Of a DNA stretch of 21,113 bases, positions 1,285 to 7,207 are shown piece by piece. Source of the DNA: a virus (taxonomy: Duplodnaviria > Heunggongvirae > Uroviricota > Caudoviricetes); IMG/VR virus record IMGVR_UViG_2563366887_000002. One strand, 5' to 3'. Both the position numbers and the translations under genes were made by a program. The notes beneath the pieces are model-generated. The model saw only the letters and a list, made by a program, of their open reading frames with translations, made no database searches and was not told the origin of the DNA. The first letter of the stretch is position 1; the number at the start of each line of letters is the position of its first letter.

Positions 1285-1418
1285 AGGTTGCTCCGGGCTA
1301 TGAAATAGAAAAATGAATCCGTTGAAGCCTGCTTTTTTATACTAAGTTGGCATTATAAAAAAGCATTGCTTATCAATTTGTTGCAACGAACAGGTCACTA
1401 TCAGTCAAAATAAAATCA
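1285..1418. other. attL: attL (B-O-P') of a lambda-type prophage: bacterial B arm, 15-bp common core GCTTTTTTATACTAA at 1331-1345, then phage P' arm with arm-type Int sites
   Basis: Core followed by GTTGGCATTATAAAAAAGCATTGCTTATCAATTTGTTGCAACGAACAGGTCACTATCAGTCAAAATAAAATCATTATTTGATTTC, which matches my recollection of the lambda P' arm; the left side matches attB (CCGTTGAAGCCT). Confidence 0.9.
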
Positions 1419-2489
1419 TTATTTGATTTCAATTTTGTCCCACTCCCTGCCTCTGTCATCACGATACTGTGATGCCATGGTGTCCGACTTATGCCCGAGA
1501 AGATGTTGAGCAAATTTATCGCTTATCTGCTTCTCATAGAGTCTTGCAGACAAACTGCGCAACTCGTGAAAGGTTGGCGGATCCCCTTCGAAGGAGAGAC
1601 CTGATGCTTTTCGTGCGCGCATAAAATACCTTGATACTGTGCCGGATGAAAGCGGTTCACGACGAGTAGATGCAATTATGGTTTCTCCGCCAAGAATCTT
1701 TTTGCATTTATCAAGTGTTTCCTTCATTGATATCCCGAGAGCATCAACATGCAATGTTGTTGGGATGGCAATTTTTACGCCTGTTTTGCTTTGCTCGACA
1801 TAAAGATATCCATCTACGATATCAGACCACTTCATTTCGCATAAATCACCAACTCGCTGCCCGGTAACAACAGCCAGTTCCATTGCAAGTCTAAGCCAAC
1901 ATGGTGATGATTCTGCTGCTTGATAAATTTTCAGGTATTCGTCAGCCGTAAGTCTTGATCTCCTTACCTCTGATTTTGCAGCGCGAGTGGCTGCGACCGG
2001 GTTTGTTGTTATATGGCCTTCAGCCATAGCCTCTCGGAATGCATCGCTCAGTGTTGATCTGATTAACTTGGCTGATGCCGCCTTTCCCTCGTCTATGTAT
2101 CCATTGAGCATTGCCGCAATTTCTTTTGTGGTGATGTCTTCAAGTGGAGCATCAGGCAGACCCCTCCTTATTGCTTTAATTTTGCTCATGTAATTTATGA
2201 GTGTCTTCTGCTTGATTCCTCTGCTGGCCAGGATTTTTTCGTAGCGATCAAGCCATGAATGTAACGTAACGGAATTATCACTGTTGATTCTCGCTGTCAG
2301 AGGCTTGTGTTTGTGTCCTGAAAATAACTCAATGTTGGCCTGTATAGCTTCAGTGATTGCGATTCGCCTGTCTCGGCCTAATCCAAACTCTTTACCCGTC
2401 CTTGGGTCCCTGTAGCAGTAATATCCATTGTTTCTTATATAAAGGTTAGGGGGTAAATCCCGGCGCTCATGACTTCGCCTTCTTCCCAT
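1419..2489 (-). CDS. int: Lambda-type integrase (tyrosine recombinase)
   Basis: 356-aa ORF, MGRRRSHERRDLPPNLYIRNNGYYCYRDPRTGKEF..., matches lambda Int essentially end to end from memory; adjacent to attL. Confidence 0.95.
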   Translation of the reverse strand: MGRRRSHERRDLPPNLYIRNNGYYCYRDPRTGKEFGLGRDRRIAITEAIQANIELFSGHKHKPLTARINSDNSVTLHSWLDRYEKILASRGIKQKTLINYMSKIKAIRRGLPDAPLEDITTKEIAAMLNGYIDEGKAASAKLIRSTLSDAFREAMAEGHITTNPVAATRAAKSEVRRSRLTADEYLKIYQAAESSPCWLRLAMELAVVTGQRVGDLCEMKWSDIVDGYLYVEQSKTGVKIAIPTTLHVDALGISMKETLDKCKKILGGETIIASTRREPLSSGTVSRYFMRARKASGLSFEGDPPTFHELRSLSARLYEKQISDKFAQHLLGHKSDTMASQYRDDRGREWDKIEIK

Positions 2490-2685
2490 TTCTGATCCTC
2501 TTCAAAAGGCTACCTGTTACTGGTCGATTTAAGTCAACCTTTACCGCTGATTCGTGGAACAGATATTCTCTTCCATCCTTAACCGGAGGAGGGAATATCC
2601 TGCATTCGCGCACCCATCGACGAACTGTTTCAAGGCTTCTTGGGCGTCGCTGGCGAGCGTTCCACTCCTGAAGTGTCAAGTACAT
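2467..2685 (-). CDS. xis: Excisionase Xis
   Basis: 72-aa ORF MYLTLQEWNARQRRPRSLETVRRWVRECRIFPPP... matches lambda Xis; overlaps int start as in lambda. Confidence 0.95.
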   Translation of the reverse strand: MYLTLQEWNARQRRPRSLETVRRWVRECRIFPPPVKDGREYLFHESAVKVDLNRPVTGSLLKRIRNGKKAKS

Positions 2686-2724
2686 CGCAAAGTCTCCGCA
2701 ATTACACGCAAGAAAAAACCGCCA

Positions 2725-2892
2725 TCAGGCGGCTTGGTGTTCTTTCAGTTCTTCAATTCGAATATTGGTTATGTCTGCATGTGCTATCTGCGCCCATATC
2801 ATCCAGTGGTCATAGCAGTCATTGATGTTCTCTGCTTCGATAACTCTGTTGAATGGTTCTCCATTCCATTCACCTGTGACTCGGAAGTGCAT
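2725..2892 (-). CDS. Small hypothetical protein, lambda orf55-like
   Basis: 55-codon ORF (MHFRVTGEWNGEPFNRVIEAENINDCYDHWMIWAQIAHADITNIRIEELKEHQAA) found by hand translation, below the ORF-track cutoff; GGAG 7 nt upstream of the ATG; sits where lambda has orf55. Confidence 0.6.
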   Translation of the reverse strand: MHFRVTGEWNGEPFNRVIEAENINDCYDHWMIWAQIAHADITNIRIEELKEHQAA

Positions 2893-2974
2893 TTATCATC
2901 TCCATAAAACAAAACTCGCCGTAGCGAGTTCAGATATAATTTCCACCAAAGGCAGTAGTTGCTGATGCTAAGAA

Positions 2975-3403
2975 TTATTCAATATCTATTCCTGTAATAT
3001 CTTTTATCTTTTTCCTTGCAAAGCCTTTTGCTAGTGATTTTGAAACACTTATTAGTGTACTAATTCCCTCATCCTTAAAGTTTGTTTTTATAGTTTGCCA
3101 GACCTCCTTTTGACGCAAGTCAGCAATAAAATCATGCCCTCTTGCTGTCAACCTCAGTGGTACTTCGAACCAACTATATCCAACACCTTCCCCTAACTCG
3201 TTGGACATTATATGACCGAACCCAGGTTTTCCATCAACCCTGACTATTAATTCGTAGTCGCATAATAATCGCATATGGAAAATAAAATTTTGGTCATATC
3301 TATTAAAGCCATTATCCTCTAGTTCACTAAGCATCGTGTCAGGGCCATGAGTTTTTTCGAATGCGATAAGTAGATCTTTTAGATATTGCTGGTCTAATTT
3401 CAT
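2975..3403 (-). CDS. Hypothetical 142-aa protein, AT-rich moron; possibly DUF2513-like, function unknown
   Basis: ORF with strong RBS (GGAGG 6 nt upstream); about 37% GC; not in lambda at this position; DUF2513 assignment is from pattern memory only. Confidence 0.6.
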   Translation of the reverse strand: MKLDQQYLKDLLIAFEKTHGPDTMLSELEDNGFNRYDQNFIFHMRLLCDYELIVRVDGKPGFGHIMSNELGEGVGYSWFEVPLRLTARGHDFIADLRQKEVWQTIKTNFKDEGISTLISVSKSLAKGFARKKIKDITGIDIE

Positions 3404-3413
3404 TGCCGCCTCC

Positions 3414-3425
3414 GTGACATGTCAC
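3414..3425. promoter_or_regulatory. Perfect 12-bp palindrome GTGACATGTCAC in the 5' leader of the 142-aa gene; candidate operator
   Basis: Read directly from sequence; lies between the stop of the upstream zinc-ribbon ORF and the RBS of the 142-aa gene. Confidence 0.35.
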
Positions 3426-3431
3426 AGAGAT

Positions 3432-3770
3432 TTATATCATTAATTTTGTTTCGTGCCAGCCTTTGGTCACCCAGCATTGTGAGTCACCATTACACGGGCA
3501 TGAATTAACAGGAACTCTCTCGCCGCACTTACCGCAACGTTTTCTGCTGATCGATTTTATACGCCAGCGCACACGTGCATCATCCTGGCGGCTCAGTAAC
3601 GCGATGTACTCACCAAACTCGTAAGGCGCATGCCTGAAGCGGCGCGTGGCTCAGTTACGATCCAGCATTTCAATTTCCTGAGCATCAAGTACAAGCTCCA
3701 GCTTACGCATACCGGATGATGCTTGCTTGGCTCTCTGATCGACTTTGCGCTCTGCTGATGATTTAGCCAT
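3432..3770 (-). pseudogene. Split ORF: 39-aa N-terminal part (3651-3770) then in-frame TGA, then 72 codons containing a Cys-rich zinc-ribbon-like motif (CGKCG...CPCNGDSQC); possibly a disrupted Ea8.5-like gene
   Basis: Hand translation of minus strand: MAKSSAERKVDQRAKQASSGMRKLELVLDAQEIEMLDRN-TGA-ATRRFRHAPYEFGEYIALLSRQDDARVRWRIKSISRKRCGKCGERVPVNSCPCNGDSQCWVTKGWHETKLMI; both parts in the same frame. Confidence 0.35.
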
Positions 3771-4063: not shown

Positions 4064-4678
4064 TTATCTAAAAGTCTTTCCACTTTTAACGTCTAGGTAT
4101 ATTCTGTTCGACAACGTCATTCCTCCGCAATATGTGAAATAGATGTTTTTCCCCTTATTGCTTGATGCCATCCACCCTCCGATTTCCTTAAAGTCGCTTT
4201 CCGTGCAGACCCCTTCGTTTATTAACTTCCTAGCTGCCGAAGAAAACTCTTTTTTGTATATACGGTAGTCATCAGATCCTTTGATTAAAGTATCATCTCC
4301 GCTCGCATTTTCAGCAGGATCTGATGGCCTTTCACTGCTAAGATCACTAAGTTTAACCCATTCTGAAAACTTGCCATTGACGATTCCGTTTTTTCTTGTG
4401 CAGGATTTATTACCTTCTTTAATATATTCGCTTTCCCCTCCCACACATGAGGCTGAATATGGCTCAGTTATACGAACCCATTCACCTTTTTTTTCTAGAA
4501 AATCTACGCCTTCCCTGAAAAATAGTTTCCCAGCCACTCCACATTTACTTGAAGGGCAGGTATGTCTTTCCGTTCGATCAACAACAACCCAAAGTCTTGA
4601 TTCATTTTTTGCCATTGCCGATGGTATTTGAGATGAGACAATTAACGTAAGCCCTAAAATTAGTATTGATTTTTTCAT
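4064..4678 (-). CDS. Secreted/periplasmic cysteine-rich protein (204 aa) with cleavable signal peptide; function unknown
   Basis: N-terminus MKKSILILGLTLIVSSQIPSAMA with AXA cleavage motif and no lipobox Cys; six Cys in mature part; SH3b-like motifs (GEWVRI, SEWVKL); about 40% GC; RBS AAGGA; own terminator. Confidence 0.7.
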   Translation of the reverse strand: MKKSILILGLTLIVSSQIPSAMAKNESRLWVVVDRTERHTCPSSKCGVAGKLFFREGVDFLEKKGEWVRITEPYSASCVGGESEYIKEGNKSCTRKNGIVNGKFSEWVKLSDLSSERPSDPAENASGDDTLIKGSDDYRIYKKEFSSAARKLINEGVCTESDFKEIGGWMASSNKGKNIYFTYCGGMTLSNRIYLDVKSGKTFR

Positions 4679-4976
4679 TGTAATTTCCTTTTACTTTTTA
4701 CAAAGCGTTTAATCATGGCTGATTATCTTTAAGCGTAGTAACAGCCTTGTGCGAAACATGTTACCAAATCGCCATTTCAGTGTATCCGCAGTTAGGCTGC
4801 CACTTCAAGGATTCCTAATTACATGGTACGTAAGCGTAAAATCCCGTTGGTTGTCGGGTAATAACTCTGATCAAATCTCCCTTGTCTTTTGCTCTTACGT
4901 ATGCAGCTCTTGTGTATTCAACCCAGGCCTCCAGTTCAGCAATACGCTTACTTCCATCCGAGATAACACCTTCTAC

Positions 4977-5228
4977 TCACGCTGCTCGTTGAGTTTTGAT
5001 TTTTGCTGTCTCCAGCTCAACACGCAGTTTCCTCACCGTTAGCGCAATATCCTCGTTCTCCTGGTCGCGGCGTTTGATGTACTGCTGGTTTCTTTCCCGT
5101 TCATCCAGCAGTGTCAGCACAATCGATGGTGTTACCAGCTCATGGAAAAGGTCCGCGTCAAATCCCCAGTTGTCATGCATTGCCTGCTCTGCCGCTTCAC
5201 GCAGTGCCTGAGAGTGAATTACGCTCAC
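4977..5228 (-). CDS. Ea22/ead-like protein fragment (83 aa) ending at an in-frame TGA; the same frame continues 54 more codons to a TAG at 4815
   Basis: DADLFHELVTPSIVLTLLDERERNQQYIKRRDQENEDIALTVRKLRVELETAK and, after the TGA, VEGVISDGSKRIAELE, resemble the C-terminal region of lambda Ea22-family proteins as I recall them; 4-nt overlap with upstream gene. Confidence 0.55.
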   Translation of the reverse strand: MSVIHSQALREAAEQAMHDNWGFDADLFHELVTPSIVLTLLDERERNQQYIKRRDQENEDIALTVRKLRVELETAKIKTQRAA

Positions 5229-5446
5229 TTCGAACCTCTCTGTTTACTGATAAGTTCCAGATCCTCCTGGCAACTTGCACAAGTCCGACAACCCTGAACG
5301 GCCAGGCGTCTTCGTTCATCTATCGGATCGCCACACTCACAACAATGAGTGGCAGATATAGCCTGGTGGTTCAGGCGGCGCATTTTTATTGCTGTGTTGC
5401 GCTGTAATTCTTCAATTTCTGATGCTGAATCAATGATGTCTGCCAT
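5225..5446 (-). CDS. TraR/DksA-family C4 zinc-finger protein, lambda orf73-like
   Basis: 73-aa ORF with CxxC-x17-CxxC (CCECGDPIDERRRLAVQGCRTCASC); same size and architecture as F-plasmid TraR and lambda Orf73. Confidence 0.75.
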   Translation of the reverse strand: MADIIDSASEIEELQRNTAIKMRRLNHQAISATHCCECGDPIDERRRLAVQGCRTCASCQEDLELISKQRGSK

Positions 5447-5554
5447 CTTTCATTAATCCCTGAATTGTTGGTTAATACGCTTGAGGGTGAATGCGAATAA
5501 TAAAAAAGGAGCCTGTAGCTCCCTGATGATTTTGCTTTTCATGTTCACCGTTCC

Positions 5555-5596
5555 TTAAAAACGCCGTTTACGCTGCAGGATAATGTCCGGTGTCAT
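5555..5596 (-). pseudogene. exo: exo remnant: first 9 codons of lambda exonuclease (MTPDIILQR) then unrelated sequence and a stop
   Basis: ATGACACCGGACATTATCCTGCAGCGTA matches the lambda exo start overlapping the bet stop; homology ends near 5568. Confidence 0.7.
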
Positions 5597-6039
5597 GCTG
5601 CCACCTTCTGCTCAGTGGCTTTCTGTTTCAGGAATCCAAGAGCTTTCACTGCTTCGGCCTGTGTCAGTTCTGACGATGCGCGAATGTCGCGGCGAAATAT
5701 CTGGGAACAGAGCGGCAATAAGTCGTCATCCCATGTTTTGTCCAGGGCAATCAGCAGAGTGTTAATCTCCTGCATGGTTTCATCGTTAACCGGAGTAATG
5801 TCGCGTTCCGGCTGACGTTCTGCGGTGTATGCGGTATTTTCGACAATGCGCTCGGCTTCATCCTTGTCATAGATACCAGCAAATCCGAAGGCCAGACGGG
5901 CACACTGAATCATGGCTTTATGCCGTAACATCCGTTTGGGATGCGACTGCCACGGCCCCGTAATTTCTCTGCCTTCGCGGGTTTTGAATGGTTCGCGGCG
6001 GCATTCATCCATCCACTCGGTAACGCAGATCGGATGATT
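5593..6039 (-). pseudogene. bet: bet (Red-beta recombinase) C-terminal fragment, about 149 of 261 aa; 5' half deleted
   Basis: Translation NHPICVTEWMDECRREPFKTREGREITGPWQSHPKRMLRHKAMIQCARLAFGF...KATEQKVAA matches lambda Bet C-terminus; in-frame TAG at 6049-6051 and unrelated sequence upstream. Confidence 0.85.
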
Positions 6040-6198
6040 ACCGGTTCGCTACCAGGGAAGAACGGGAAGGAAAGGTGAGCACGAATCTGATTTTCAAGGA
6101 GTGTCGCCAGAGTGCCGCGATGAAGCGGGTGTTGGCATTTTATCGCGGCAATTTTCAATAGACTATGTACATAAAAATATCATTTTTTTAATACATGT

Positions 6199-6390
6199 CT
6201 AATTATTGGACGAAATTGGTTTTTGCTTTGGTTTAGTTAGCCTAGCAATCAAGCCAGAGGCAATAATGATGATCCAAGCAATTTGATGCAATGCTACTCC
6301 AATATAAGAACCTTTATAGATAATAAAGGCATAGATCGCTAGAAACGAAATAAATATCCATAACGAAAGTTGATAAATTTTGGCGCGCAT
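6199..6390 (-). CDS. Small hydrophobic membrane protein (63 aa from ATG; 68 aa if the TTG at 6405 is used), two predicted TM helices; function unknown
   Basis: MRAKIYQLSLWIFISFLAIYAFIIYKGSYIGVALHQIAWIIIIASGLIARLTKPKQKPISSNN; about 33% GC; weak RBS. Confidence 0.45.
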   Translation of the reverse strand: MRAKIYQLSLWIFISFLAIYAFIIYKGSYIGVALHQIAWIIIIASGLIARLTKPKQKPISSNN

Positions 6391-6611
6391 ATTTAATCCA
6401 ATCAATCAGAAAGACGAGTAATCATAGAGGTACTATCACCCGGGTAACTATTGCTATTATGAACGGATAGGATAGAGGCTTCAATAACATATGCATCAAG
6501 TATGATGGAATATGTAGGTGAAAATGACTTGTGTCAAATTTGTGGAAATGAGTACCATGTTTCTCTGAAATTGATGTCGTTAATGGCTAGTGATAGTGAA
6601 CTTTTTTACTT

Positions 6612-6617
6612 TATAAT
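6612..6617 (+). promoter_or_regulatory. Consensus -10 hexamer TATAAT about 30 nt upstream of the lipoprotein operon start
   Basis: Exact TATAAT read from sequence; no good -35 found. Confidence 0.25.
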
Positions 6618-6646
6618 TCCTTTGGTTATAACAATAAGGTAAATTT

Positions 6647-7207
6647 ATGAAGAAGATAATATTATTAGCCATGATTATTGGTTCTTTAACAGGTTGCGCT
6701 AGTGTGCCACCATTGAATTTTTCAACACCTAACGTGGGAGTTAGCTAGAAAAAAATAGATGCTGAAATTAAGTCATTAACGGTATCACTTGCTCGTCCAG
6801 ATGAGCAGAAAGGGGATATCACTGCTGGTATGGAGGCTATAACTCCAATTTGGCGTGAATCTTTGCAGGAAGCACTCGACCGAATGACTATTTTTCGTGA
6901 TAGTTCACCAAATACGGTTAGCTTAAATGTTAAAGTGTTGGCTCTTGACGTTCCTGCTTTTGGTGTTTCAATGACAACTAAAGCAATTGCAAGGTATGAA
7001 ATAATCAACCGTGCGAATGGTGATATTATATATACGCAGGATATTGAGTCTACCGGTACTGTTCCAGCCAGTTACGCATTCTACGGTATTGTTCGAGCAC
7101 GCGAATCTGTTAATCGCGCGGTGCAAAACAACATAACGCAGTTCTTGCAAGCATTAGAAAGTGTTGATCTTTCTCGTCCAATGTTTCCTGTTAGGGTAGC
7201 TAAATGA
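6647..7207 (+). pseudogene. Lipoprotein gene (lipobox LTGC) interrupted by an in-frame amber codon (TAG 6746-6748) after 33 codons; 153 further in-frame codons downstream
   Basis: MKKIILLAMIIGSLTGCASVPPLNFSTPNVGVS-TAG-KKIDAEIKSL...VRVAK; RBS AAGGT 7 nt upstream of ATG; ORF track reports only the 6830-7207 portion; ATGA overlap with next gene. Confidence 0.5.

Follow-up and report, generated by a model that had tools for sequence, protein, structure and literature searches.

A conserved 12-bp palindrome at the 3' end of gp49-like phage genes and the DUF2513 gene behind it in a defective lambda-like prophage

Background

In phage lambda the Q gene is closely followed by the element in pR' to which the Q protein binds, and the N protein has nut/boxB. 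In the bacterial host, MatP reads DNA partly through a ribbon-helix-helix. The MatP site, matS, is the 13-bp sequence GTGAC[AG]N[TC]GTCAC (GTGACRNYGTCAC) (PMC3603311, PMC3116907). The site of SlmA, called SBS, is the 12-bp sequence GTGAGTACTCAC, in which SlmA needs G, T, A and G at positions 1, 2, 4 and 5 and prefers a pyrimidine at position 6 (PMC3020112). The element described here, GTGACATGTCAC, is a perfect 12-bp palindrome situated in a stretch of 21,113 nucleotides (IMG/VR record IMGVR_UViG_2563366887_000002, "the window") that carries a lambda-like prophage, defective and situated at the attachment site of lambda. The palindrome separates two genes of the minus strand, a pseudogene of the family of epsilon15 gp49 and a gene encoding a DUF2513 protein. 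The features of this junction are as follows.

2975-3403, minus strand: DUF2513-family gene, 142 amino acids (aa), ATG start; predicted winged helix-turn-helix followed by C-terminal helices
3409-3413, minus strand: Shine-Dalgarno sequence GGAGG, read from the sequence, 5 nt before the ATG
3414-3425, no strand: perfect 12-bp palindrome GTGACATGTCAC, a conserved 3'-flank element of the gp49-like gene family
3432-3770, minus strand: gene similar to epsilon15 gp49 and N15 gp46 (PHROG 536), found by translation and a pseudogene here

The palindrome falls between the upstream TAA stop codon (3432-3434) and the GGAGG, and ends 10 nt before the DUF2513 start codon. An earlier note, made from the sequence of the window, had described the open reading frame (ORF) for a 142-aa product, its GC content of about 37%, its GGAGG ribosome-binding site and the perfect palindrome between that site and the upstream stop. 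All of these are present. The measured GC content of the ORF is 36.1%, compared with 44.7% for the window, and 400-bp windows around it dip to 37-39%.

Comparison with other loci establishes that GTGACATGTCAC is a cis element conserved at the 3' terminus of the upstream, gp49-like gene, whatever follows it. No report of the 12-mer was found in the literature. The motif resembles matS and SBS in having outer GTGA...TCAC sequences, perfect dyad symmetry and few dispersed copies per replicon. Nevertheless, it fails both definitions: it is one base shorter than matS and tied to a phage gene instead of the Ter region, and its central bases are wrong for SlmA. The resemblance to lambda Q and N is one of arrangement. 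The gp49 gene, small, basic, zinc-containing and regulator-like, ends an early operon and has a conserved site immediately 3' to it; in epsilon15-like phages the gene and its site lie just before the late (terminase) genes. However, no homology between the gp49-like protein and Q or N was found, nor could a promoter be identified at the site. Copies of the motif lie beside terminators and not in promoters or leaders, and in the lambda-like carriers of the gp49 module the site is not near the late genes.

Conservation of the palindrome and its linkage to the gp49-like gene

The window contains five perfect 12-bp palindromes, whereas 5.5 +/- 2.4 are expected from shuffled sequences, and copies of GTGACATGTCAC with one or two mismatches occur in the window at chance level. 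Because these counts are those of chance, any claim of function for the palindrome requires comparison with other loci. The 12-mer is present in exact form in Cronobacter and Enterobacter prophages and has one central-base difference in Serratia prophages, while the spacer on either side of it is unrelated among the loci of these three genera. The 12-mer is identical at 12 of 12 positions between loci whose synonymous sites are saturated (synonymous differences per site, pS, of 0.75-0.85).

The linkage was assessed in 37 distinct sequence contexts 3' of gp49-like genes. The exact 12-mer is found in 29 of the 37, a copy with one mismatch in three and a copy with two mismatches in one. The motif begins either 1 nt before a TGA stop codon, placing the stop inside the motif, or 5-9 nt past a TAA or TAG stop codon. 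The feature that comes next is variable. It may be a DUF2513 gene, a 70-aa gene of PHROG 1541, a tiny ORF with a terminator, a 145-aa gene of PHROG 2266 (which then precedes DUF2513), a gene for an excisionase (xis), a LexA box together with a umuD-like gene, a non-coding stretch of 150 nt, or, in epsilon15, a terminator alone.

In enterobacterial phages the DUF2513 gene usually lies directly behind a gene of the gp49/gp46 family. Homologues of DUF2513 that have no gp49-like neighbour lack GTGACATGTCAC upstream, and the motif occurs in epsilon15, phiV10 and ZF40, phages that give no match to DUF2513. Because it is present with or without a DUF2513 gene and absent from DUF2513 genes without a gp49-like neighbour, the palindrome belongs to the upstream gene. 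The earlier note had proposed that it is an operator of the DUF2513 gene and had looked to homologous loci for a decision. The palindrome is indeed conserved at these loci, but in a pattern that speaks against such an operator.

In some E. coli strains (L073; H26 = NCTC9040) an insertion is situated exactly at the junction of the palindrome and the Shine-Dalgarno sequence, and the 12-mer upstream of GGAGGCGGCAATG is replaced. We take this insertion to be IS1, from the recognisable appearance of its end and from the RefSeq annotation. We also considered a mini-ORF that would begin with the ATG in the middle of the palindrome (MSRRRQ*, with an ATGA overlap with the DUF2513 start). It was rejected, as it has no Shine-Dalgarno sequence and its ATG is lost in the Serratia variant GTGACATCTCAC.

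Further copies in phage genomes

The exact 12-mer is expected by chance in about 0.003 copies per genome. Three phages have the following copies.

epsilon15 (L214), positions 2142, 19517 and 39612: three exact copies
phiV10 (L215), positions 2262, 19493 and 39101: two exact copies, and one with one mismatch at the third homologous place
ZF40 (L216), an unrelated myovirus, positions 5125, 7622 and 14944: three exact copies

One of the epsilon15 copies is located past the terL terminator, between convergent genes. Another lies over the stop codon of the last gene of the structural operon, 2 nt before a terminator, and another over the gp49 stop codon, 24 nt before a terminator. The phiV10 copies occupy places homologous to those in epsilon15, beside intrinsic terminators, although their flanks differ. 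In these two Uetakeviruses the copies fall where transcription units end. A second copy 2.2-2.5 kb downstream, after terL, was found in 34 epsilon15-like contigs among those fetched. None of the copies in epsilon15, phiV10 and ZF40 is annotated, despite the richly annotated epsilon15 record. A copy with two mismatches at the Rz end of epsilon15 was dismissed, as it is at chance level and is unmatched in phiV10.

The upstream gp49-like gene

The intact form of the gp49-like gene matches PHROG 536 with E=7e-48. Its product has a basic, Arg/Lys-rich N-terminus and a Cys-rich, zinc-ribbon-like C-terminus. The epsilon15 gp49 protein is annotated as similar to N15 gp46, and members of the family, which has no Pfam model, are always named "hypothetical". 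Sequence and profile searches with the gp49-like protein gave no match in Pfam or the Protein Data Bank (PDB). Homology to MatP was considered and rejected (hhalign probability 0.1%).

In the window the gene is interrupted by an in-frame TGA at 3651-3653, codon 40, where intact alleles have a Cys codon (TGY). Other E. coli prophages have intact alleles, as does Chlobot, a lambda-like phage; the nonsense allele is common to several IMG/VR contigs.

At four loci (L003, L005, L014 and L209, the last being gp21-gp22 of ZF40) the gp49-like gene directly follows a DNA methyltransferase gene with an overlap of a few bases. This order of genes hints at a recurrent pairing of the two.

The DUF2513 gene and its product

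The ORF at 2975-3403 is a genuine, selected phage accessory gene that encodes a DUF2513 winged-helix protein. Residues 2-115 of the product align with positions 1-100 of the 100 positions of the Pfam DUF2513 model (PF10711), scoring 42.8 bits (E=7e-11) against a gathering cut-off of 29.6 bits, and the product also matches PHROG 585, a family of unknown function. The earlier note's suggestion of a DUF2513-like protein with no known function is thus borne out. Its description of a small helical protein holds for the C-terminal helices; the preceding part, according to a confident structural model, would be a winged helix-turn-helix with beta strands, of a MarR/PadR-like fold. RefSeq already labels this gene "DUF2513 domain-containing protein", and it is found in 167 of 5426 complete E. 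coli genomes. Chlobot also carries a DUF2513 gene.

Between the gene in the window and the alleles in Enterobacter and Serratia prophages pS is saturated at 0.75-0.85, whereas pN, the corresponding value for nonsynonymous sites, is 0.14-0.18. The low pN in the presence of saturated pS shows that the gene is real and under purifying selection. Enterobacterales contribute 113 close homologues, and among 1.8 billion representative sequences a profile search found 1508 relatives, nearly all of which are stand-alone proteins of 130-145 aa. Every genomic look-up placed the gene in the early or accessory region of a prophage. Clustering of the neighbours of distant homologues, outside Enterobacterales, gave no conserved partner gene.

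The closest described families are Pfam DUF2513 and YjcQ (PF09639), small winged-helix proteins of phages and prophages. The gene in the window has the size, the stand-alone architecture and the phage or prophage location of the DUF2513 family, which has no assigned function, and shows no trait that distinguishes it from the other members. The winged-helix regulators of the MarR, PadR and HxlR families are more distant: identity is only 8-21%, their Pfam families are not matched, and the C-terminal helical part is different. A fold search of BFVD retrieved only uncharacterised, YjcQ and PadR-like proteins. No match was found in NCBIfam or among PDB sequences, nor in PADLOC at E<=1 for the DUF2513 protein and its three neighbours. 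Nothing functional on DUF2513 was found in the literature, where a member serves only as a marker for the polymerase chain reaction.

In a few relatives (P0258, P0362 and P0327) the DUF2513 domain is N-terminal to TIR effector domains, with matches of 7.7e-21 to the CAP12/Pycsar TIR and 3e-19 to TIR_2; a weak DUF4062 match was also found. This architecture is typical of defence effectors, and the fusions are the sole pointer to a role of DUF2513 in phage-host conflict. They also bear on the role in defence or anti-defence that the earlier note suggested, for which PADLOC gave no match. Since the same domain forms the N-terminal part of TIR-effector proteins elsewhere, the DUF2513 protein could, by analogy and with low confidence, be a nucleic-acid- or ligand-binding winged-helix module that takes part in such conflict.

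A separate clade of DUF2513 genes, with about 50% identity (L015, L020, L022 and L116-L126), has a promoter-like leader 30-70 nt upstream that contains a 21-bp palindrome, for example CAGGCATTCAnTGAATGCCTG, followed by GATAAT. The sequence of this leader suggests that the genes of the clade are expressed independently under the control of a repressor.

The prophage surroundings

The window opens within ybhC, after which come int, xis and orf55 of lambda. Alignment to the lambda genome (blastn vs J02459) shows that window 1331-2940 corresponds to lambda 27724-29333 with 97.9% identity and that homology picks up again at window 4930 (lambda 30094). The intervening block and the other features of this region are listed here.

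2912-2931, minus strand: intrinsic terminator hairpin followed by TTTTGTTTT, found by a terminator scan, 44 nt past the DUF2513 stop codon
2941-4929, no strand: non-lambda mosaic block, 41% GC, delimited by blastn vs lambda J02459
3806-3910, minus strand: remnant of a umuD/LexA-type peptidase gene (LLVVDSSLTPVDGSLLVCAIEG*YRVKRYRKYPRR), directly upstream of the gp49-like gene
4064-4678, minus strand: AT-rich gene for a 204-aa lipoprotein-like product, PHROG 8310 (function unknown), with a lipoprotein-like signal and a weak SH3_3 match

The block contains the DUF2513 gene, the gp49-like pseudogene, the umuD-like remnant and the 204-aa lipoprotein-like gene, which may be another accessory or exclusion-type gene. 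It is present in Chlobot at 97.9% identity; in the annotation of that phage an ORF running from the umuD-like remnant into the gp49-like gene is named "UmuD-like protein". The terminator at 2912-2931 sits in lambda-homologous sequence. The block stands in for lambda 29334-30093, that is, for ea8.5 and the 3' part of ea22. The replacement of ea8.5 and ea22 stated in the earlier note is therefore correct for the first gene and partly so for the second, as the 5' part of ea22 is retained at window 4977-5228. The GC dip and the lambda alignment mark the DUF2513 gene as an AT-rich accessory gene in the variable ea region.

The DUF2513 gene shares with the genes of the lambda b2/ea region (ea8.5, ea22) the slot between xis/orf55 and the recombination genes, and with the ea genes and morons an AT-rich composition, dispensability and variation among relatives. 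It is nevertheless unrelated in sequence to ea8.5 and ea22, and the independent promoter usual for morons was not found in a promoter scan.

Farther along the window, at 4930-7850, lambda homology leaves off after the 5' part of ea22 and picks up directly in bet, of which the 3' part is present (window 5569-6041, lambda 32001-32473). This is followed by unrelated AT-rich DNA and then by the nin region, with ninB at window 7847. By blastn against lambda, the window lacks exo, gam, kil, cIII, N, the immunity region and O/P. The pL promoter, which normally drives the minus strand here, is missing, since the lambda homology skips the region in which it lies. The loss of pL together with the TGA at Cys40 of the gp49-like gene suggests that the local circuit is decaying in the window.

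Interpretation of the palindrome

On balance, the DUF2513 gene is probably a component of a phage accessory block, and the palindrome an element of the module of the upstream gene. The DUF2513 gene would fill a cargo slot right after the 12-mer, with its Shine-Dalgarno sequence abutting the motif. It would be co-transcribed with the gp49-like gene, on a transcript ending at the terminator at 2912-2931.

How the palindrome is read is a more tentative matter. The 12-mer may be a double-stranded DNA site for a dimeric protein, a proposal that we would neither press nor discard, and the best candidate for the dimer is the gp49-like protein itself, with its basic N-terminus, possibly a ribbon-helix-helix, and its zinc ribbon. 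All 12 positions of the motif are conserved, including those of the would-be loop; no compensatory changes are found, and hairpin predictions are weak and differ between lineages. Sequence-specific binding of a dimer to the DNA duplex is favoured because the loop is as conserved as the stem and because variants break pairs without compensation. The strict linkage of the motif to the gp49-like gene makes its product the obvious candidate for the reader. A protein bound to the 12-mer, 10 nt before the DUF2513 start, could gate transcription into the cargo gene. Any influence of the palindrome on expression of DUF2513 would then come from the upstream module and not from a private operator. In the window such control by gp49 has probably been lost, because the gp49-like gene has a nonsense codon.

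A broader version of this proposal, possible but doubtful, is that GTGACATGTCAC is the cognate DNA site of the PHROG 536 family, and that the gene and the site form a portable module of regulator plus site that controls read-through into cargo genes, here DUF2513. In Uetakeviruses the portable module would mark the ends of transcription units beside terminators, and in ZF40 it would flank the immunity region.

Among the alternatives the one that survives best, although we consider it unlikely, is that the 12-mer functions as RNA. It would fold, where the upstream cistron ends, into a small hairpin through which translation of the following gene is modulated, by occlusion of the ribosome-binding site or by translational coupling, or it would be a protein-bound signal before terminators. 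The Arg/Lys-rich N-terminus of the gp49-like protein might then bind RNA, by analogy with lambda N and boxB. The spacing of the motif is suitable for such a role, since in most gene pairs 8-12 nt lie between the end of the motif and the next start codon, the Shine-Dalgarno sequence abuts the motif, and the upstream stop codon is 6 nt before the stem or within the motif. Furthermore, an intrinsic terminator follows each of the epsilon15 and phiV10 copies at a distance of 0-41 nt, on one strand or both. In the window the stem can be enlarged by an additional feature.

3410-3429, minus strand: extended imperfect inverted repeat, of the E. coli lineage only, the extension not being conserved in other genera

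As RNA this repeat would form a 9-bp stem, with one G-U pair and a 4-nt loop, that includes the Shine-Dalgarno GGAG. Its minimum free energy is -10.8 kcal/mol with a z-score of -1.43, and 19 of 200 shuffled sequences fold equally well. No T run follows the palindrome, so that it is not an intrinsic terminator, which consists of a GC-rich stem and a T run. The conserved core amounts to only 4 bp and a tetraloop. The folds predicted for six lineages share no structure and are no better than those of shuffled sequences; their z-scores range from -1.75 to +0.85. Variants at positions 1, 5, 6, 8 and 9 include some that break pairs and none that is compensatory, and the would-be loop bases are conserved as well as the stem. 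Finally, the copy at epsilon15 gp49 has no downstream gene on which to act, and at the terL site the motif comes after the terminator on the terL strand.

It is considerably less probable that DUF2513 has a promoter of its own with the palindrome as operator, bound by a repressor, perhaps by the DUF2513 protein itself in autoregulation. The MarR/PadR-like winged helix predicted for this protein is a fold typical of dimeric repressors that bind palindromes, and the other DUF2513 clade, with its own promoter-like region and 21-bp palindrome, indicates that individual regulation is possible. By eye, a weak promoter-like sequence, CTGGCA-17 nt-TGnTATAAA, can be recognised where the upstream gene runs out; it stops 5 nt short of the palindrome. 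However, the promoter scan found no sigma-70-like site on the DUF2513 (minus) strand, and the distance from the putative -35 element to the motif shifts by 9 nt between lineages. The motif is present in epsilon15, phiV10 and ZF40 with no DUF2513 gene nearby or in the genome, and it is missing at DUF2513 genes without a gp49-like neighbour. Two loci, L111 and L114, have another gene or an 80-nt spacer between the motif and DUF2513. Moreover, the centres of the half-sites are 6-8 bp apart, which would be short for a winged-helix dimer.

Slightly less probable still is a 12-mer without function, either a conserved recombination joint or the end of the gp49-like module, hitch-hiking with it through mosaic exchange. 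Mosaicism is strong in lambdoid and related phages, and the motif marks the point where the downstream sequence diverges into different cargo genes. Against this, the identity at 12 of 12 positions persists despite saturated synonymous sites, and coding does not hold the motif in place, as its offset from the stop codon shifts. The extra exact copies in epsilon15, phiV10 and ZF40 are far from any gp49-like gene, and 12 bp would be short for homologous exchange.

Least probable of all is that the 12-mer serves to decoy or hijack a protein that organises the host chromosome, such as MatP or SlmA: the motif does share GTGAC/GTCAC with matS, and the 12-bp length and the outer GTGA/TCAC with SBS, but it has 12 bp and not 13, no 13-bp matS is present in the window, epsilon15, phiV10, ZF40 or Chlobot, its C5 and A6 are contrary to the requirements of SlmA, its close tie to a single family of phage genes suggests that the reader is encoded by the phage, and the gp49-like profile, as noted, has no homology to MatP.

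Several observations weigh against assigning the palindrome to the upstream module as a protein-binding site. Four contexts (L095, L103, L157 and L210) have a gp49-like gene and no motif. The 3' end of a gene is an unusual location for its own operator. No single positional rule describes the copies: two of those in ZF40 are within the coding regions of genes flanking the immunity region, an exact copy in AH07 encodes the zinc motif CVTCHG, which may be coincidental, and Chlobot, with an intact gp49-like gene, has a single copy, as does the window. The AlphaFold2 (AF2) model of the gp49-like protein is poor, with a mean confidence score (pLDDT) of 56, and its match to the NCBIfam ribbon-helix-helix model "LexA regulated protein" is below threshold (E=0.0068, 16.8 bits, cut-off 62). 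In the E. coli lineage, where the repeat reaches into the Shine-Dalgarno sequence, there may be an effect on DUF2513 translation at the level of RNA. As for the cargo, the proposed function of DUF2513 draws on fold and domain fusions only.

Significance

The DUF2513 gene is one more member of an uncharacterised family, and the TIR fusions make this family a reasonable candidate for studies of phage-host conflict. What is new, as a modest lead, is the palindrome, a previously unannotated, invariant cis element that is co-inherited with a very common phage family lacking a Pfam model. Together with the gp49-like protein it constitutes a directly testable pair of protein and site, which may show how such phages separate or connect their operons. 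If the proposal of a portable regulator and its site is true, the pair would represent, on the side of the phage, what MatP/matS and similar site-specific systems are in the host.
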